Source: Eledone cirrhosa (lineage: Eukaryota). From it: a DNA stretch of 64,000 nucleotides. This document shows positions 27,987-59,210 of this stretch, in pieces (positions within the stretch are counted from its first letter, which is position 1; the number at the start of each line of letters is the position of its first letter). The notes beneath the pieces are model-generated. The model was not told the DNA's origin and ran no database searches. It was given only the letters and a program-made list of their open reading frames with translations. The position numbers and the translations under genes are program-made. Location of the stretch: assembly GCA_964016885.1 (NCBI GenBank), contig OZ024741.1, positions 234,360,001-234,424,000 of the forward strand, read 5' to 3'.

Positions 27987-30704
27987 ATGTACCCTGTTCA
28001 GTCTAGCTACCCTATTGGAAGTCAGCAAGGCATTAACAACCAATCGTTGTACCAAAACCACCATCTGAAAGGCCACCCAAATGCTTCGTCTGGGGGCAAA
28101 GCATTTCGACCTTTGGATGGCTCTGGAGGCACAACAGCGACAGCCACTAGTGTTACAACATCTAGTGGAGGCGGGAAGAGCTTTAGAAATGATACAATTG
28201 CCCGCAAAGATTTGTCTACTCAAAGAACTGCCTTGCCTAACCTCAATCAGGGTAGTTCCTCTACAAACAATAACACCACCGGCAATACGCCCCTTATTCA
28301 AAAAACATATCCCTGTACCATTTGTAAGAAGATATTTTCCAGCCCATTTTTCCTCAAAAATCATGAGCAAACTCACCAGATACACTCAATGGGGACGTCA
28401 AAACCATTTGGCTGTTCTGGATGTCACAAGCAGTTCCCTCTATTCGTGGACTTAAAGAATCACAATTGTATGCCTGTCCAGTCCCAGACAACACAGGAAA
28501 TGACAGGACAAAGAAATCTGATGGGCAACAATATGCATTCAAAACCATATCATTGCGACATATGCAACAGAGGCTTTTCCCACCATGCTAATTTAAAGTT
28601 GCACCTTCGCACTCATTCCGGTGACAAACCATTTTCTTGTGAGGTATGCGGCAAAAGTTTCTCTCAGAAGAACTGTCTGAATGATCACAAACGGCTTCAC
28701 AGTGGAGATTTGTTCTACTGCAGTTACTGCAAGAAGCCATTCGCCAATGAATTCTTTCTACGCAACCATCTAAGAACTCATACTGGCGAGAAGCCTTTTG
28801 AATGCAACTTTTGCGACAAGAAGTTTTCACAGCGCGGTAACTTGAAAACTCATATGCGCATACACACAGGGGAGAAACCGTTTCAGTGTGACCTCTGCGA
28901 TAAATCTTTTGCTCAGAAGAATTGCCTGACAGACCACAAACGCCTTCACACAGGCGACATGTTTTTCTGTATTGTCTGCAAGAAGGCATTCACTAACCAA
29001 TTTTTCTTGAAAATCCACGAACAGAGCCACACTGCTGTAAGTAATAGTGAAGGAGGCGAGTCTATGTTTTATTGCACCTTTTGCAAAAAGGGATTCTCAA
29101 ATCAGTTTTTCCTACGTAACCATGAACGGACACACACAGGAGAAAAACCTTTCCACTGTCAGTTTTGTGGTAAATCATTTGCTCAAAGTGGAAACTACCG
29201 ATCACACATGAGAATACATACTGGCGAAAAGCCATTTGTCTGTGATGTCTGTGGAAAAGCATTTACTCAAAGAAACAGCCTTAGCGATCACAAACGCTTT
29301 CACACTGGCGAATTGTATTATTGTAGTGTGTGCAAGAAGGCCTTTTGCAATCAATTTTTCTTGAAGATTCATGAACAGACTCATTCAGGGGAGGTATATT
29401 ATTGTTCCTATTGCAAGAAAGGTTTCCCTAATCAATTCTTCTTAAAAAATCACTTGAGGACTCACACAGGTGAGAAGCCATTTGTGTGTCAATTTTGCAA
29501 TAAAGCTTTTGCCCAGCGAGGAAACTTAAAACTTCATGTGAGAATACACACTGGGGAGAAACCACATGTCTGTGACATTTGTGGTAAAGGTTTTGCACAG
29601 AAAAACTGTCTGATTGATCACAAGAGGATTCATAGTGGAGATTTGTTCTTCTGTATTGTATGTAACAAAGCGTTTACAAACCAATTTTTCTTAAAAATCC
29701 ATGAACAAGCTCACACTGGTGAAATGTTCTATTGTAGCTACTGCAAAAAGGGATTTTCTAACCAATTCTTCTTAAAAAATCATGAAAGGACCCATACAGG
29801 AGAAAAGCCATTCCAATGTAATTTCTGTAAAAAGAGCTTTTCTCAGCGTGGTAATCTAAAGTTACATCTACGGAGACACACTGGTGAGAGGCCATTTAAC
29901 TGTGACGACTGTGGCAAATCTTTCAGTCAACGCAACAATCTTATTGACCACAAAAGAGTACACAACGGAGAGCTATTTTATTGTAACTTCTGCAAGAAGC
30001 CATTCTGCAACAAATTTTTCCTACAGAATCATGAGCGAACTCACACTGGAGAGAAGCCATTTGAATGTGAGTATTGCAAGGAGAAGTTTTCACACCAGGG
30101 TAATTTAAAAACTCATCTTCGCAAACATACTGGAGAGAAACCATTCTCGTGTGATCACTGTGGCAAGTCATTTACTCAGCGACCTAATCTGACCAACCAC
30201 AAGTGTCCTGCTGCTATAGCTGCTGCTGCTGCAGGGGACAGGATGTTTCTCAAGGGAACCAATACTCTGTCATCGACAATCAATACCCTCGGTAAGAAGT
30301 TCAATACTGGCACAGTTAGCAGTGACGGAGAACTAAAATCCCTAAACTACAGCTCCTCGAACAAAGAAGCCAACTCCCAGATGAAAACGAACATAAAAAA
30401 CAGTGAGATGGTACGTGATCAATCAAACCAACAGAGCAAAGATTCCTCAGTGACTACACCAATTAGGCCTCAGGCATCTACTGCTTCTTCTTCACATTCC
30501 AACTCAACCTACATTCATGGAATGCCTCAGTCATGGGAGAACAACTATTTGTGGTCACGAGGTTTTGCAGTACCACCTTTAATTGGCTCCGCCTGGCCCA
30601 GCGTCACTTGTAGCTCCAAACAAAACAAGCAGAACGCCTGGGGTAACCTTCAAGGGATGCACTCTTCAAGGAATACATCAGAAGATATCAGTAGTTCCAA
30701 GTGA
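27987..30704 (+). CDS. C2H2 zinc-finger protein ZF-A, 905 aa, 22 fingers (20 C2H2 + 2 C2HC), single coding exon
   Basis: Uninterrupted ORF; CxxC-x12-HxxxH repeats with TGEKP linkers; downstream AATAAA at 30781 and beyond. Confidence 0.95.
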   Translation: MYPVQSSYPIGSQQGINNQSLYQNHHLKGHPNASSGGKAFRPLDGSGGTTATATSVTTSSGGGKSFRNDTIARKDLSTQRTALPNLNQGSSSTNNNTTGNTPLIQKTYPCTICKKIFSSPFFLKNHEQTHQIHSMGTSKPFGCSGCHKQFPLFVDLKNHNCMPVQSQTTQEMTGQRNLMGNNMHSKPYHCDICNRGFSHHANLKLHLRTHSGDKPFSCEVCGKSFSQKNCLNDHKRLHSGDLFYCSYCKKPFANEFFLRNHLRTHTGEKPFECNFCDKKFSQRGNLKTHMRIHTGEKPFQCDLCDKSFAQKNCLTDHKRLHTGDMFFCIVCKKAFTNQFFLKIHEQSHTAVSNSEGGESMFYCTFCKKGFSNQFFLRNHERTHTGEKPFHCQFCGKSFAQSGNYRSHMRIHTGEKPFVCDVCGKAFTQRNSLSDHKRFHTGELYYCSVCKKAFCNQFFLKIHEQTHSGEVYYCSYCKKGFPNQFFLKNHLRTHTGEKPFVCQFCNKAFAQRGNLKLHVRIHTGEKPHVCDICGKGFAQKNCLIDHKRIHSGDLFFCIVCNKAFTNQFFLKIHEQAHTGEMFYCSYCKKGFSNQFFLKNHERTHTGEKPFQCNFCKKSFSQRGNLKLHLRRHTGERPFNCDDCGKSFSQRNNLIDHKRVHNGELFYCNFCKKPFCNKFFLQNHERTHTGEKPFECEYCKEKFSHQGNLKTHLRKHTGEKPFSCDHCGKSFTQRPNLTNHKCPAAIAAAAAGDRMFLKGTNTLSSTINTLGKKFNTGTVSSDGELKSLNYSSSNKEANSQMKTNIKNSEMVRDQSNQQSKDSSVTTPIRPQASTASSSHSNSTYIHGMPQSWENNYLWSRGFAVPPLIGSAWPSVTCSSKQNKQNAWGNLQGMHSSRNTSEDISSSK

Positions 30705-50169: not shown

Positions 50170-52548
50170 TCACGAGTTCTGTTTGCCATGTTTGCCGCTA
50201 GAGTAAGATGTAGGCATGTTTGGCCAGCTGGAGCCAAGCAAGGTAGGCATTGGGTAGCCTCTTGGCCAGAGGTAATTTGTTTCCCAGTTCTGTGACATCT
50301 CATGGAGGTAAGCAGCAGAATTAAACCGAGACAGGTTTGAAGGATGTAGTCGCATTCCAGTCTGGGAATCTTGCGGATTTTGATGATGGTGTTGCTCTGA
50401 CCGTGCCATATGAGAATTTGGTATATGTTCTGGATGGTGTTTATTGTTTTTCATATTGTGCTTGCCGGAATTCGACGATAACATTGATGGCTGATGAGCT
50501 TGTTGCTGCTGCTGCTGTTGTTGTTGTTGTTGTTGCTGCTGCTGCTGCTGCTGAGGTTTCGATGAACTTGTATCACAGTTATATGAAGATGTCTGAGAAG
50601 TTGATGATAAATTGCTCTTTTCGTGGAGCTGATGGCCCTCGTTGTCATTCTTCTCCTCAGAAGACATCATCATTGATGTCCCCATCACTGGGAGAGAATC
50701 AGAACCTGACATGGGAGGCGAGAGGTTGGAGTCTTTAGGGTACATCATACAGCCATGAGAAGATTGTGAAGAGGTAGAGGACATTGGTGGTTGCTTGGCA
50801 AAAAGTTCACAGCCCGTCCGAGTCCTTTTGTGGTTGTTTAAGTTGGCTCGCTGTGAAAATGACTTGTTGCACGTATCACACTTGAATGGTTTCTCTCCAG
50901 TGTGTGTCCTCATGTGTAACTTCAAATTTCCAGCTTGAGAAAAAGCCTTCGAACAAATCTGACATTGGAATGGTTTTTCTCCTGTGTGAGTTCTCTCATG
51001 GTTACGCCATTCAGTTCGCTGTGAGAAGAGCTTGTTACAGTAGCTGCAATGGAAAGGTTTTTCTCCGGTATGGACCCGGATGTGGTTTTTCAGGCTAATT
51101 TGCAAAGTAAACTCCTTGGTGCAATAGTCGCATTTAAACAACTGTCCTGTGTGGACACGTTGGTGATTTTCAAGATTAGTTTTCTGTGAAAAACACTTGT
51201 CACAAAGGTCACACTTGAAAGGTTTCTCACCTGTGTGTGTTCTCATGTGTAACTTGAGGTTTCCGTGCTGACTAAAAGACTTTGAACACATACTGCAATG
51301 AAATGGTTTCTCTCCGGTATGAGTCCTCAGATGGTTCTTTAGATTAATCAAAAGTGTGAAATCTTTTGGACAAAATGTACATTTGTAAAGTTCTCCCGTG
51401 TGAGTGCGCTCATGAATTTTCAAAAAGAATTGGTTGCAAAATGGTTTTTTACAATAATTGCAATAGAATAGATCACCAGTGTGCAGCCTTTTGTGGTCAC
51501 TCAGATTCACCTTTTGTGAAAAAGCTTTGCCGCATACATCGCAGGCAAATGGCTTCTCTCCAGTATGTGTTCTAAGATGGAGCTTTAAGTTACCTCTCTG
51601 GCTAAAAGCCTTCGAACAAACGCTGCAGGAAAATGGTCGTTCGCCAGTATGTGTTCTCAAATGATTTTTTAAGTTTGTCTCTTGTGAGAAACATTTGTTG
51701 CAGAAATGACAGTGAAAGGGCTTTTCACCTGTATGTATACGTTCATGTATTTTGAGGAAGAACTCATTAGAGAATGGTTTCTTACAGAACTGACAGTAGA
51801 GGAGGTCTCCAGTGTGAATACGGTTGTGGTAAGTCAAGTTGATTTTTTGAGAAAAGCATTTACCACACACTTCACATGAATATGGTTTCTCCCCAGTGTG
51901 TGTTCTGAGATGGAGTTTGAGGTTACCCTGTTGACTGAAGGCCTTTGGACAAAGGGAACACTGAAAAGGTTTCTCCCCTGAGTGGGTCCTTAAATGGTTT
52001 TTGAGATTGATTTTCTGCGTAAAGGCTTTGTCACAAGAATTGCAGTCAAATGGTCGAACGCCTGTGTGCGTGAGCTCATGGTTCTTTAAGAAGAACTGGT
52101 TGGTGAATCCTTTTTTACAAAATGTACAAAAGAAAGATTTCTCGTTACCACCTTGACTATTTCGCATGCTTTCACTATCTTGTTGGTTGTCATTGCTGGT
52201 GCCGCCACCACCACCACCACCACCATCACTCCCACTATTGCCACCTGCACCACCACTATTATTGTTGCCAGGACTGCTGCATGTTGAAGCTGGACCACTG
52301 TTATTCATGCACATATTGTTGTTGCCACTGTTGTTATTGTCTGTATTATGGCCCCCACTGGTGCCATCATTGGCACCGTTTGATTGACTAAAGTCTTTCC
52401 ACATAAGATCATTGCTCTTGTCGAGAATGTTCATGATCTGTGACTTGTCAGGGACTTTTAAATGACAACCAGGGTTGTAGATTGGCTGACCATAGAAGCC
52501 AGAAGTGTTGTTGAAGTTCATTGGGAAAACCGGTTGAATTGGATACAT
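50170..52548 (-). CDS. C2H2 zinc-finger protein ZF-B, 792 aa, 16 fingers (last one degenerate), polyG and polyQ tracts, single coding exon
   Basis: Uninterrupted ORF; TGEKP-linked fingers; paralogous to ZF-A. Confidence 0.95.
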
Positions 52549-52601
52549 TATTAAACAGTTCTTGAAATGATCAACTGAACACTGGTGGTGTAGTGGTAGT
52601 G

Positions 52602-52614
52602 CTACAGCAGATTA

Positions 52615-52620
<6 letters not shown>
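52602..52620 (-). promoter_or_regulatory. Candidate 3' splice acceptor of the ZF-B coding exon
   Basis: TTTAATCTGCTGTAG|C, 53 nt before the ATG; position comparable to ZF-A; weak pyrimidine tract. Confidence 0.4.
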
Positions 52621-52647
<27 letters not shown>

Positions 52648-54659
52648 CAAAATATATATATTTTGTGTGAGTCACCTCAACATGATCTCCACACATAAAT
52701 CCTCAAATGTCATCATTCATAAAACACCAGGGGAAAAACAGTCAGATGAAGAAGAAATGATACAAGCCACAGTGTATCCTTCTGCTTGTCTTCTAATTAA
52801 ATAACAGTGCTCAAAATGAAAATGTGAGAAATTGCACAAGTGGTCTTAGAAATAATATATGTATGCACATATATACATACTGGGGTTTAAAATGACAGTA
52901 TGGTTTAATAGAACTTAAGTGACAAGATGATAAGAATGAGATGGTAGGTGGGATTTTAAATTCATTCTGTGCTAACATCAAAGATTGTTGCTCCTGCTGC
53001 TGTTGTTGTTGGTGGTGGCTGTTTTCCAGTTCTTTTATTCCAATATTGTTAGAAAAGAAAACTTGGTGGCAGTGTAGAGTAGCAGTGCTTCAAGACAGGC
53101 TGTCTGAAATATAAAGGTGATTTATTAGTGATTGAAAAGGATGTGAGAGTATCTGTGTGTGCATGTGCAAGCAAGTATATGCATATCTGTATATGTATGT
53201 GTATGTGCATGTGTGTGTGTGTATGAATGTATGTAGGAACTATGCCAAAAGGACACAACAAACTTCTAGTGATAAAACTTCTCATGATAAAATGCAACTG
53301 GTGCATTCTGTAGAGTGCAGGAACATATGTAAGTAAGAATTGGGCCCCCTGGCCCATCTGAGAGGTCAGTAGCTCAGATTAAGTACTGACTTGGTCTGTG
53401 ACAACCAATCCAAACTTTCCTAGCAGGGAAAATGGATGTTAAATGATGATGTATGTATGTGCATATATACCTGTACATGTGTTTATGTATATAACTATCA
53501 CTGTCAACTGCCTTAATTTGAACATAAACAATTCTATATGAAACCAATCATGCTATCCACGAAGTCCAGCAAATGCTATCCAATCCATAATCCTACAATC
53601 ATGCCCACTCACCACACAAGACAAAGTAAAATTCTAACATATTCTTCAAAACCATACCCTAACCACCTGGCAAAACAACAACCAGCCCGCAGCAATTACT
53701 GATGTGAGGGGGCACAGACGTCATCAGGCTGCAGTTGTTGTATTACATAGTTTCTACATTGTGTACATTATTTTATTATACTTTGTTCCCTGAAATCAAA
53801 GACTGATAGCTGATGTTTAAGGAAATTACAAAAATACAAGGACCGTGACAAGTGGAGAGATGTTGTGCTGAGTAGGACCTGTCCACCCTTGCAAGCAGGG
53901 AAAAGCGGACGTAAAATGATGATGATGATAATGACACCCTAGAACTAAATATAAATATTATTGAGCTCATGAGAACTTCCTACCCACATTCAAATTTGTA
54001 ACTGCCTACTGAATCATCATCACTACTATCATCATCATCGTTCAACACCATTTTCTATGCTTGCATGGTTTGGACGGGCTATCTCGTACTGAGGCTAAAC
54101 TGGTCAGATGACCTCATCTTGCCTATACATTCCATTCTGGACTTCGTTTTCTACAGCTGGATGCCCTTCCTAATCCTAATGTCATTTTATAATGTGTACT
54201 GGATGTGTTTTTGTCATGGCACCAATACTACCACCTTACAGGGTGAACTGGATGCTTTTTGTTGTGGCACCAACATGATCACCTTATAGGTTGGGCTGGG
54301 TGCTTTTTCTTGTGGATATATATATATATAGGGAGGAAATGGTTGAATCCTTAAGACCAAAACAATAATTAAGTTACATAACTTTAAATTTGTAAAATCA
54401 AAATTTTTTATGTACATATAATTTAATCATGGTATTGAAAAGGTTACTCTTAGCTTGCTAGAAATAGCAGTCAAATCAAACTCTACTGACTGGAAAAAAA
54501 CACACACAAGAGAAAGTTAGTGCTTCATATATATATATATATAAAAACTCAAAAAAGCAGATGGTCATGCCTGGAACAGCTTTCATCACAGCTCTGTTAG
54601 ATCAGACCAGACTGGAAGATAAGCAGCAACAACATATAAATATTATTGTATTTGTTTAA

Positions 54660-54860: not shown

Positions 54861-54879
54861 ACTTTTGAATCATAAATCT

Positions 54880-55190
54880 TCGAAAACGAACCAAGTGAAG
54901 TAGGGCAAATCATATAACCCTGAGTGCCCATTCTCCCTGAGCAGATAGAGAGTGGAACACATTCTGAGCTCATGTAGAGTAGCACTAACCTAAATACACA
55001 TGGAAGCACAATCAAGTGCTTAAGGAGATCATACATATGGTAAGTACAGCAAAAGTAAAATCCGTTGCACCATTTTACACGACAGGAGGCAGCAAATCAT
55101 GGCTAGGAACAGCTATGCCATACTGGGTATGGGAGTGGAGTCTTTTGGGTCGTGCAGATGACTAGGAGTGCACAGCAGACCACCAAGGAT
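54880..55190 (+). pseudogene. HERO-type non-LTR retrotransposon, CCHC knuckle region (left part of a split element)
   Basis: Manual translation: N.VK*GKSYNPECPF....VEHILSSCRVAL..KYTWKHNQVLKEI...LLGRADD*ECTAD. Confidence 0.75.
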
Positions 55191-55205
55191 CTTTTTAAAC
55201 AAACA

Positions 55206-55211
55206 TTTATT
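55206..55211 (-). promoter_or_regulatory. Candidate polyadenylation signal of the transposase
   Basis: AATAAA on the minus strand about 135 nt after the stop codon. Confidence 0.5.
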
Positions 55212-55345
55212 AACAACACAAGGCTTCAACGTCATTCAAACTATATAGAAAAGCAGAAAAACATCAAAAATACAGTTTTTAAGGTTAGATTAGTTACTAA
55301 ACATGGATCCACAAATTTTAGAGGCACCTTTTCTCCAGAACCTAT

Positions 55346-57115
55346 TCAGTAATGTAAATTTGTGTGGAATGTCTTGAAACATGGGTCTACACATAGAGCA
55401 ACTTCACAGTCTGCGCATTGGTAGCGACTTTCTCTCCTTCTATCATTATCGGAACATACTTTGCACTTCCTGGTTGGATTTGGCTTCTTTTCGGTTGGTG
55501 GAATCAGAGAAGGTAAGTGCCTTTCAGTCAAACGAAGTGTATTTTCAATGGACAGGCGGCCACCGCTTGTCTTTGACCGTTGCACATGGTGTCTTTCCAC
55601 TAAACTGCGGATAACGCTCATTCTGAAGTCAAGGAGTGATGAGTCATTTCCCACAGCTTTGTACAATATCAAAGCATTGAACAAAGATATATCCAGCATG
55701 TGAAAAAATACTTTTTTGTACCATTTTATGGTTTTTCGCATACTGGGGTACGCATGCTGTACACTATCACATAAGTCCCCACCTCCCATGTATTTGATAT
55801 AGTCAACCACACATTTAGGCTTTACCACATCCGTACCAATTGCTATACTCCTTCCGGTATTTTGCATTGAATTGTCATGCATTGTACTAAGCATAAAAAT
55901 GTCTTGCTTATCCTTCCAATGATAAGCAGCAGTACCTCCTTTCTGGAATACTTCCATTTCTCCAGTCTGCATTTTTGAAAAGTCAGATTTCGGCATTCCA
56001 CTTCTGTTTTTCTGCACAGTTCCACACATGTAGGTTTGATTATCCAGCAACATGTTTGCCAGAGTAGGGCTAGTAAAAAATCTGTCAAGGTAGAGTTTAT
56101 AATTTTGGCCAAACAAGGGCTCCATGAAGGTGTAAACAACCCTTTCACCTTGGTCACTCTCCTCAGTACTGTATCGTGCAGTGGCATCGGTATATACAAG
56201 AAAGTCCCACACATAGCCAGTTGTACTTCCACAAAGTTCATAGCTTTTCACTCCAAACCTGGCCCGCTTGGTCGGAATGTATTGGCGAAATCCAAGCCGA
56301 CCCTTCCACAAGATCAGCGACTCGTCAATACAGACATGTTCACGTGGTAGATATGACGTCCTGAACTTTTCTCGCAAGTGGTCAATAATGGGCTGTAATT
56401 TGTAAAGCCTTTCATCAGCATTTTGCTGGGTATTATCAGCAAAATGTAGCATAGTCAGCAGGAGCAGGAAACGGTTTTTGGTCATACACTGTCCAAAAAA
56501 TGGAGTAGAAATCAGTGGATCAGTGCTGAAATACATGGAAATTTTAGGTTTCTTTTCTATCCCCATTAGCATAATCAATGCAAAAAATTCATATATTTCA
56601 TCGCTGTTGGTTGGTTTCCATGCTTTTATCCTGGAGTATTCCATTAGATCATATCTAGCTATGAACAACTGAGCATACTTGTTTGTCTCTGTAACTATGT
56701 GATATACTAAGTTCGGTGAAACGAACTTTTTGAAGCAGACAACAGGCTCAGATTCCTGCGTCAAATCCTGATGTTGAACACCATGATTTCCGGAAAATTC
56801 ATTAACAAATGGTGGTGTAAATGACTTTGAGTTCCAATCACTTTCACTAACACGAGAAGAACGTTTTTTCTTTGTATTTTCTTTTCTTTGACTCTGTCGC
56901 GTGCGTTTTCCCCGCCCGTGTGTATTTACACTCTGTTGACCTGTACTTGTTGATGGTTGGTTTATATCAATATCGGTATCACTTGAGCTCGATTCAACTT
57001 CAGGATCACATGAAAAATCACTATCTAGTTCACTATTATAATCCTCATCATCAGAACCGTGAGTAAATATTATTTCCAAAACATCTTTTACATTTACTGT
57101 TTTTCTTGACGCCAT
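55346..57115 (-). CDS. piggyBac transposase (PGBD4-like), 589 aa from the first in-frame ATG
   Basis: Acidic N-terminus; DDD motifs IDESL, LDRFFTS and GGGDLCD; C-terminal Cys-rich domain CKVC..CADC...C..PC...H; no stops. Confidence 0.92.
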   Translation of the reverse strand: MASRKTVNVKDVLEIIFTHGSDDEDYNSELDSDFSCDPEVESSSSDTDIDINQPSTSTGQQSVNTHGRGKRTRQSQRKENTKKKRSSRVSESDWNSKSFTPPFVNEFSGNHGVQHQDLTQESEPVVCFKKFVSPNLVYHIVTETNKYAQLFIARYDLMEYSRIKAWKPTNSDEIYEFFALIMLMGIEKKPKISMYFSTDPLISTPFFGQCMTKNRFLLLLTMLHFADNTQQNADERLYKLQPIIDHLREKFRTSYLPREHVCIDESLILWKGRLGFRQYIPTKRARFGVKSYELCGSTTGYVWDFLVYTDATARYSTEESDQGERVVYTFMEPLFGQNYKLYLDRFFTSPTLANMLLDNQTYMCGTVQKNRSGMPKSDFSKMQTGEMEVFQKGGTAAYHWKDKQDIFMLSTMHDNSMQNTGRSIAIGTDVVKPKCVVDYIKYMGGGDLCDSVQHAYPSMRKTIKWYKKVFFHMLDISLFNALILYKAVGNDSSLLDFRMSVIRSLVERHHVQRSKTSGGRLSIENTLRLTERHLPSLIPPTEKKPNPTRKCKVCSDNDRRRESRYQCADCEVALCVDPCFKTFHTNLHY

Positions 57116-57297
57116 CTTACCATTCAAATCACACGCGTACTATAAGAATAACAATGACAAAAAAAAATCTCAAATGATCACTGAGAAAAAAACCCATGCG
57201 AAATTTATTTGGTAACCGTACTCATATCTGAATGATTGACAAATGCCACATCAATCAACTAGTAGCCCCATCTAACTTTGAAGTTATGAACTGTTGG

Positions 57298-57440
57298 AAA
57301 AGAGTTATCTCGTCCGTGGCCCTGGAATGCATACATGTTAGAACAAGTTATCTAGTCCGTGGCACTAGAATGTATACATGTTAGGACGAGTTATCTTGTC
57401 CGTGGAACTGGATGCATATATTAGGACGAGATATCTCGTC
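57298..57440. repeat. piggyBac subterminal tandem repeat, about 43 bp x 3.3
   Basis: GGACGAGTTATCTCGTCCGTGGCACTGGAATGCATACATGTTA; each unit contains the palindrome GGACGAG-N4-CTCGTCC. Confidence 0.9.
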
Positions 57441-57456
57441 TACAATACGATAGAGG

Positions 57457-58170
57457 TTAAGACCGGATATCGTACTCCATTCCAGTTCATCAAAACAGTT
57501 GATTTTGATTGATCTTACCATGCCATTTGAAAGTAAAATAGAAGAAACACACGTGTTCGAGATCGAAAAATACGCCAGTTAGGGAAACAGCCTGAAGGAA
57601 GCTAACTTCCGCATCAAAGTTCTCGCCATAGAAGTTAGAGCTAGATGCTTTGTTGGCAAATATGCCTACAATCTCATAAAACAACTCTCAGTTTCTGTGA
57701 AGAGCAAGACCAAAGACAATATCACAGGCAGCGGGGAGGAGTTCCAGCTGTATCTGGTCAAGGAGGGACAAAAACAACCTCCATGTTGTTTGAGGGCATC
57801 GTGTTTGTATTTTAATGTACGCCAAGGGGAGTAACTTGTAGTGATGGCGGCGACGGAGACACTGTAGAGTCTCCCCGCTACCTTGACTACCAACGCTATT
57901 TTTCCAAACTCAAGAAAGCGTTTAAATATGTTTGAAAGCAGGAGTAACAGAGATGAGTTCCAGCTGCATCTTGTCAACAAAATGCGGTTTAAATGCACAA
58001 CAAATTTCCGATATCCAAGTAGCTAAAAAAAAGTCAGCAAAAGGGCACCCAGGATTAATGACCACGATACAGCCCGGCCCCCTTTAGAGCCTAAGAAGTT
58101 ATGAGGCGAAACACTTGTATGAGTGGGGTTTCTTTTTAGAAGACCTTCTGCTATCCAGCTCTCCAGAGAG
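57457..58170 (+). pseudogene. HERO-type retrotransposon RLE domain and 3' UTR (right part of the split element)
   Basis: LRPDIVLHS..KQLILIDLTMPFE...EKY..*...AIEVRARCFVG, starting exactly at the TTAA. Confidence 0.8.
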
Positions 58171-59210
58171 TTTCTTATCATCATAAAAGAGGACGTCAGT
58201 GTTAATTTCTACTGTATGTATAATTTTATAATGACATTTTTTTCTTATCTTAACACGACCATAAATATCTCTCTTTTAACAGAATCGGTACAAGATTTAA
58301 CCGATGCCACATTTACACATGCATGCACCTTCGGTGAAATCGTGTTTTGTTTCTGTACAGATATGTATCTACAGCATATGTCAGTTACTTAGTGCACAAT
58401 TCAATACATAACTCTCTTCCCATTCGAGAGAGGTAAATCCTTAATTTGAGATACTACGAGCTGCAACTCGTTCTCTGCCTCCAACGTTGTCGTTTCGGCC
58501 GAAAACCCAGGCACTGCCAAACACCGGAGTTTGACATACTTCTTCCTTCGATACATCAGGTATCCCATTTTCCTTCGCAAAATCAGAAAAACAACAGACC
58601 GCTTAAAGGATGCAGGGTGACTGTTGCACTTGGCAATACCTTCGCCATTTTGTCCGCAAGACACAGCTAAGAGAAACCATTCGGACTGGGGTGTAGAGTC
58701 TGATTCCATTCCCTGTTTAATTTTTTTCTTTCATTTTTATTTTTCTTCTATTTTTCATTCATAACTATCCAGAGGGAAAAAATTCCTTTAAGACGACAGC
58801 AGTTATCTCCCTTCTATTTGTTAGCCGATTGAATAGACCTTCGTTGGTTTTGACGATATGTGTTCCAGTTGTTCGTTCAATGGAACAGCCTGTTCGTGAA
58901 ATTAACGTGCTGTGGTAAGTGACGCTCAAGATGCCACGATATTGACGTCGAACCTAGTACCTATGGATTGCGAAGCAAACTTCTTAACTTTTAGACTATG
59001 CTGCACCCACTACCTATTTGCATCTACTCATGAAACAAAGAGAAGAATTAAAACCTACATATATTTCGCTAGAACAAAGTTAAGGACTAAATACATAATA
59101 TATAAATCAAGTCGTATTTATTACAACTTTTCTCATTCTTTACCAGTAAATGTTTACATAGAGATCATGAATAGACAAACAGCTGTTTCAACTGTTGACA
59201 TTCTCTAGCA

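Follow-up and report, generated by a model that had tools for sequence, protein, structure and literature searches.

The piggyBac copy upstream of ZF-B

The window, the whole 64,000-nucleotide stretch of Eledone cirrhosa DNA that was analysed, lies on contig C2 of the 3.0-Gb genome within a cluster of single-exon C2H2 zinc-finger genes. On its minus strand it carries a piggyBac copy with an ORF of 589 amino acids (57115-55346), which starts at a TTAA (57460-57457) and is called the focal copy in the following, and the zinc-finger gene ZF-B (52548-50170). A sequence-only reading of the window had proposed that the ORF, together with a splice acceptor in front of it and a poly(A) signal behind it, could serve as an alternative terminal exon upstream of ZF-B. 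The coordinates behind this proposal held. The AG at 57141-57140 follows a T-rich tract and lies 24 nt before the ATG at 57115, the ORF was confirmed to be intact, the AATAAA is found at 55211-55206, and the stop codon is separated from the ATG of ZF-B (52548) by 2,798 nt. The following features were annotated.

56500..59000, no strand: CpG-retaining zone (o/e 0.7-1.0) with CpG-poor flanks, largely repeats; candidate promoter region with a candidate donor at 58639
57461..57998, no strand: older host repeat, portion upstream of the focal copy, with a candidate donor at 57518
57457..57460, minus: TTAA target site at the left end of the focal copy; family left ends read TTAA-CCTCTTCAGTG
57421..57456, minus: left terminal sequence, damaged by comparison with the family majority
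57302..57412, minus: 43-bp subterminal direct repeats, 3 copies detected
57204..57209, minus: AATAAA in the 5' region of the focal copy, before the acceptor; possible competing poly(A) signal
57140..57165, minus: T-rich tract and candidate splice acceptor AG (57141-57140); TTG in 6/7 other copies
57121..57123, minus: out-of-frame upstream ATG that opens a 9-codon uORF, 8 nt ahead of the main ATG
57115..57120, minus: candidate splice donor G/GTAAGA, in 8/8 aligned copies
55346..57115, minus: intact 589-aa piggyBac transposase ORF with matches to PF13843 and PF13842
55206..55211, minus: AATAAA in the 3' UTR of the focal copy, 135 nt after the stop
55191..55192, no strand: deletion junction of the focal copy
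54878..55191, no strand: host repeat, portion downstream of the focal copy
52601..53400, no strand: 800 bp without CpG between the focal copy and ZF-B
50170..52548, minus: ZF-B, intact 792-aa single-exon C2H2 zinc-finger ORF with the MYP start of its paralogs

The deleted right end, the damaged left end, the donor at 57120, the ATG at 57123-57121 and the AATAAA at 57209 had not been listed before.

The focal copy is truncated and its family consists mostly of MITEs

The TTAA insertion point of the focal copy lies within an older repeat; in paralogous copies of this repeat the two halves adjoin each other without interruption. From its translation this host repeat (57461..57998) is likely the 3' region of a LINE in antisense orientation, and its Pfam match is weak (zf-RVT, E 0.056). 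The copies of the family are bounded by TTAA on both sides and terminate in a right end of about 80 bp. The focal copy stops at 55192, where a deletion has removed its right end (about 80 bp) together with the second TTAA and some 34 bp of the host repeat. A TTAA-ended repeat at 54877-54655 was considered as the right end and rejected, being a separate repeat. At the left end, 7/41 columns deviate from the family majority, with 6 of the differences clustered in the first 15 bases, and a genome-wide search that allowed up to 1 mismatch found this variant a single time. Since the loss of even a terminal base abolishes piggyBac excision (available text of PMC5381638), a copy with a deleted right and a damaged left end should be immobile.

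A 15-mer of the right end had 662 exact matches in the genome against 4 for a control. The family thus comprises at least 662 ends, and the copies examined were mostly MITEs. Only one other ORF-bearing copy was found (11/11 candidates scored; 74 of 1053 scored in the protein search). This sister copy, C24, is 84-86% identical to the focal copy and carries 6 stops, one of them beside a gap, and 10 gap segments of non-triplet length, which amount to about 7 distinct frameshifts after merging neighbours. The focal copy is the only intact family copy found, which agrees with the single-copy definition of PGBD genes in the available text of PMC5381638. When copy number and dN/dS were checked, it did not turn out to be one of many young copies with a dN/dS near 1, the outcome that the sequence-only reading had named as speaking against itself. 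Outside the ORF, the two ORF copies differ from the majority of the other copies at 8/168 and 7/168 columns and are therefore of similar age.

Several observations were made on related elements. The 43-bp subterminal repeat has grown to tandem arrays of 2-3.5 kb at G000:C12:40021558-40023379 and C19:28277454-28281036, and internal expansions are also seen in several family MITEs. The genome also contains another, unrelated piggyBac family (32% identity), of which at least 6 copies of 558 aa are intact (L024-L029 on G000 C1, C2 and C1216). They are 98-99% identical and therefore recently active, and have no AATAAA within 400 nt past the stop.

The ORF encodes a piggyBac transposase with changes in the catalytic core

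The 589-aa protein matched PF13843 (E 1.5e-88) and PF13842 (E 2e-5). By its DDE_Tnp_1_7 core, the D-D-D(-D) motif and the Cys-rich C-terminus it is classified as a transposase of the piggyBac superfamily; D264, D344, D447, D450 and the C-terminal Cys/His domain are all retained. The best solved relatives by sequence and fold are piggyBat (9c0f) and T. ni piggyBac (6x67), and Uribo1/2 are 34-37% identical to the focal protein. Two database relatives at 46-50% identity, P0002 (743 aa) and P0003 (749 aa), have a long N-terminal extension and a Ser in place of the third catalytic Asp, and look like another domesticated member of the same clade.

At conserved columns, G310D, L330F, N440I and V446G are private to the focal copy. 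With these changes in the core the cutting activity may be lost, or decay may have begun. The sequence-only reading had pointed to odd residues in CGSTTGY, YTD and YIKYMGGGD as possible signs of neutral decay. C24 has the same G in CGSTTGY, which thus does not belong to the focal copy's own decay, whereas the changes in YTD (G310D) and YIKYMGGGD (N440I, V446G) are indeed private. The predicted structure, made with 12 sequences, has a mean pLDDT of 67.9 with low values at 446-453, and cannot judge the active site.

The ORF shows signs of purifying selection

An intact ORF of 589 codons is more than expected by chance. Pairwise dN/dS between the focal copy and C24 was 0.48 over 540 codons, which compares the ORF to a dead paralog and is not an ortholog test. 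Four-fold sites differed at 19/144 and zero-fold sites at 72/958 (p 0.033). An active phase of an element also lowers pairwise dN/dS, by selection during transposition.

The amino acid differences were then assigned to the two lineages by outgroup residues, not by a model, with codons near gaps masked. This gave 14 to the focal copy, 44 to C24 and 16 unassigned (binomial p 1e-4; worst case 26 vs 48, p 0.014), and at least one assignment is wrong since that of I15 is contradicted by the DNA copies. The skew persisted when CpG-type changes were removed by hand (p 0.003), and the synonymous differences, assigned by GC-to-AT direction, were unskewed (18 vs 13). The lineage-by-class test gave p 0.002, with a worst case of p 0.20. 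Neutral decay at 4.8% would give about 60 replacements and 4 stops. That all 13 disabling lesions lie on C24 has a chance of about 1 in 8,000 if the two copies are equally old, and of about 1 in 200 if the focal copy has half the age. The age was estimated from 168 columns, and with a divergence of 2-3% an ORF free of stops would be expected with a probability of 0.08-0.19; the focal copy was also picked for its intactness.

The changes of the focal copy do not avoid the core, since 4 private departures occur at the 92 highly conserved columns, against 13 in C24. Among its assigned changes 4/14 lie at highly conserved columns, a proportion similar to that in C24. By domain, 9/15 fall into the catalytic region and 0 into the Cys-rich domain, compared to 17/40 and 4 in C24. 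The skew is small, and the distribution fits a DNA-binding role with small numbers.

No relative above 56% identity to the focal protein was seen among the matches listed in the protein searches, and the exact sequences were absent from the collection that was searched for orthologs. A close ortholog of ZF-B is also missing among the matches listed, and the missing transposase ortholog therefore says little. Three sequence sets, contigs from a single sample, had introns and exons covered to the same degree and thus behave as DNA rather than RNA. The candidate alleles in the ORF (2-3) are too few for use.

We consider purifying selection on the ORF after its insertion to be probable. Since the copy has lost an end and has kept the full-length ORF while the only sister found is wrecked, it is likely a young gene kept by the host and a candidate for a young domesticated piggyBac. 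The domestication raised by the sequence-only reading is therefore backed in part, by a single intact and immobile copy with signs of purifying selection against a dead sister of the same age.

Splice and poly(A) signals around the ORF

The tract before the acceptor has 12/16 pyrimidines, and at least 12 are also found at 15/172 YAG sites on the same strand between 58700 and 52560. In the same 6.1 kb AATAAA occurs 6 times. Singly, the acceptor and the AATAAA are not more than chance. The AATAAA after the stop is present in most aligned copies and is a family feature, whose use is predicted. At the position of the AG, the 7 other copies with the region (8/8 candidates scored) have TTG in 6 cases and TAG in 1. 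Being absent from 6/7 other copies, the AG is probably not ancestral; it is probably a point mutation, either private or from a minor subfamily. The site of the upstream ATG is ACG in 5/7 other family copies. The family MITE L124 (G000:C19:30251316-30251508) matches the focal copy at one further base in addition to the AG and the upstream ATG, which may be convergence or a minor subfamily.

Some features would oppose a clean use as terminal exon. The donor 19 nt past the AG would bound, together with the AG at 57140, an exon of 19 nt (57139-57121), the upstream ATG is out of frame, and an AATAAA precedes the acceptor.

Transcription of ZF-B probably starts upstream of the focal copy

In octopus, gene bodies carry methylation, and promoters and transposons are mostly free of it (available text of PMC9476566), and long-term loss of CpG should therefore mark transcribed DNA. 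The CpG o/e ratio was mostly low at about 16.5-56 kb and at 59-67 kb, and high at 56.5-59 kb. The stretch 52601-53400 with zero CpG appears gene-body-like, not promoter-like. All paralogs examined (9/9) were CpG-poor over 4 kb upstream, with 0.00-0.56 CpG per kb. Because of the depletion and the CpG-poor upstream regions of the paralogs, a start of ZF-B between 52600 and 55200 is unlikely. The focal copy is sense-oriented to ZF-B and probably landed in a non-coding 5' UTR intron of this gene, a placement taken solely from the CpG depletion. ZF-B, 9 paralogs and 3 database relatives start with MY[P/S] in the large exon. Upstream exons are therefore probably non-coding, and a fusion to the transposase is unlikely.

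ZF-B may start in the zone at 57.5-59 kb or near 70 kb. The CpG-rich zone consists mostly of repeats. In the ORF, CpG was lost at 2 positions in the focal copy and at 17 in C24, which fits low methylation near a promoter and also protein constraint. The 10 zinc-finger upstream regions had neither a first exon nor a promoter motif in common, strand skew at the locus gave no signal, and CpG retention per repeat was too sparse for placing the promoter. A YY1-like motif with a donor at 58652-58639 was tried as a first exon. It lies within a repeat family with 957 candidates and was kept only as a candidate.

Two further regions were noted. The CpG-poor region 59000-67500 has no long ORF and may be a longer leader intron of ZF-B or belong to a divergent transcript. 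The paralog closest to ZF-B (C2:234.66 Mb) has, about 5.3-6.3 kb upstream, a CpG-rich fragment (L158) in antisense orientation; presumably this fragment is mariner-like and a young insertion rather than a promoter.

A predicted alternative last exon in the leader of ZF-B

The reading that we prefer, with a probability of roughly 45%, is that an immobilised and selected copy in the leader intron of ZF-B acts as a predicted alternative last exon for an unfused protein that binds MITE ends. The piggyBac element inserted at the TTAA of the older repeat, which would lie within the 5' untranslated intron of ZF-B, and then lost its right end, which should have made it immobile. Host selection for the protein would have kept the full transposase frame. 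ZF-B transcription would begin upstream of the focal copy, and the AG at 57140, probably the product of a point mutation, would serve as acceptor. With the AATAAA at 55211 in use, a share of the transcripts from the ZF-B promoter would then yield the unfused 589-aa protein. The most speculative step is that this protein might bind the MITE ends of the family by its unchanged C-terminal zinc domain without cutting. The Cys-rich domain of piggyBac binds transposon DNA (available text of PMC5861402), and binding rather than cutting is proposed because the changes lean to the catalytic core.

The ORF might instead be a fossil, either a lucky neutral survivor or once selected and now decaying, with the splice and poly(A) motifs unused. 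The private non-conservative changes beside the active site (G310D, N440I, V446G) and the new out-of-frame ATG agree with this, as do motifs at chance level, a finding selected for its intactness and a best listed identity of at most 56%. It is opposed by the fall of 13/13 disabling lesions on an equally old sister and by the synonymous excess, and the missing ortholog carries little weight. We regard a fossil as unlikely.

Another explanation keeps the selected ORF and gives it its own promoter in or just upstream of the left end, with the AG unused; in a variant, the same promoter feeds ZF-B by the donor at 57120 (or 57518), and read-through gives the transposase. The left end is at the centre of the CpG-retaining zone, the ORF has lost far fewer CpGs than that of the sister, and the donor is found in all aligned copies (8/8) while the AG is not. 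Against it, such transcripts would run into the AATAAA at 57209, the nearly CpG-free gap suggests that an upstream start of ZF-B transcription long predates the insertion, and the CpG zones of the paralogs have no common promoter motif. We judge such a promoter to be rather improbable.

That the copy stems from a late, low-copy active lineage and was truncated after a recent insertion is very unlikely: selection during transposition would also explain the low pairwise dN/dS and L124 has bases in common with it, but there is no near-identical sister, the damaged left end has no second copy in the genome and the divergence outside the ORF equals that of old copies.

A wider form of the alternative last exon is speculative, and we would not expect it to hold. 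One point mutation would have supplied the acceptor, and by it the promoter of a zinc-finger gene would have gained a second product from an immobilised piggyBac, a DNA-binding protein new to the octopus and directed at more than 660 MITE ends. Octopus zinc-finger clusters would act as recurrent nurseries in which transposases become domesticated by way of 5' UTR introns, without KRAB fusion.

Comparison with known transposase-derived genes

Domesticated piggyBac genes have been described in mammals, fish, Xenopus and ciliates. The sequence-only reading had drawn the analogy to PGBD3, which lies in intron 5 of CSB/ERCC6, its ATG preceded by an acceptor at 7 nt and its stop followed by a poly(A) site at about 130 nt; its authors hold acceptor and poly(A) to be general piggyBac features (available text of PMC2268245). 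Like the focal copy, PGBD3 has a sense piggyBac ORF, a candidate acceptor before the ATG and an AATAAA about 130 nt past the stop, and both have decayed sister copies and many MITEs (MER85 in the case of PGBD3; same source). It differs by demonstrated splicing and protein, an in-frame fusion to 465 host residues, both ends and D352N. For the focal copy, splicing is predicted and a host fusion is not expected; it retains DDD but not the right end, and most of its sisters (6/7 copies) do not have the AG, so the analogy is imperfect.

PGBD1 and PGBD2 resemble the predicted layout in having host upstream exons and the transposase as one large 3' terminal exon (available text of PMC2268245), but they are ancient mammalian genes with an altered catalytic motif, whereas the focal copy is about 5% diverged and its left end is kept. 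KOBUTA of Xenopus and PGBD4 share with it a single intron-less ORF with DDD and the Cys-rich domain kept, and differ in that orthologs are known in several species. KOBUTA clusters with Uribo1/2 and is reported to inactivate Uribo through heterodimerization (available text of PMC5381638). By the definitions of the same source, a complete element (PBLE) has two terminal inverted repeats. The focal copy lacks the second and is not complete; it is 'PGBD-like' until orthologs are shown.

KRABINER, in ZNF112, is also a transposase within a C2H2 zinc-finger gene and binds the terminal repeats of its own family (bioRxiv 10.1101/2020.05.07.082677, available text). It is a mariner with a KRAB fusion and an acceptor that pre-existed in the transposon, whereas the focal copy is a piggyBac that lies ahead of the coding exon and whose acceptor is probably new. 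PiggyBat and T. ni piggyBac match the focal protein over nearly its whole length in sequence and fold, but are active mobile elements with two ends and 24-28% identity. By analogy, the focal gene would work like PGBD2/PGBD3 or KOBUTA and be of a kind already known.

A literature search, mostly at the level of records, found no domesticated piggyBac from a cephalopod, and piggyBac is not mentioned in the available main text of the octopus-related papers PMC10027918 and PMC12988792. Because the copy is young, with its left end, dead sister and MITE family still readable, the steps of domestication (immobilisation, gain of the acceptor, possible loss of cutting) could be ordered with few related genomes. 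If the ZF-B promoter is shared, the capture of transposases by zinc-finger genes would extend to an invertebrate, and C2H2 clusters and transposons, two hallmarks of octopus genomes, would be joined at one locus.

Other zinc-finger genes of the cluster

At least 12 single-exon C2H2 genes with the common MY[P/S] start were seen at G000:C2:233.7-237.4 Mb, and the C2H2 genes of this cluster have the C-terminal motif W-x-x-NY-x-W-[S/P]RG in common. One paralog of the cluster matched an Octopus vulgaris protein in 665/687 residues. Within the window, the paralog ZF-A (27987-30704, plus strand, 905 aa) is convergent with ZF-B and has about 11 kb of CpG-poor DNA upstream, which suggests a start of ZF-A near 16 kb.
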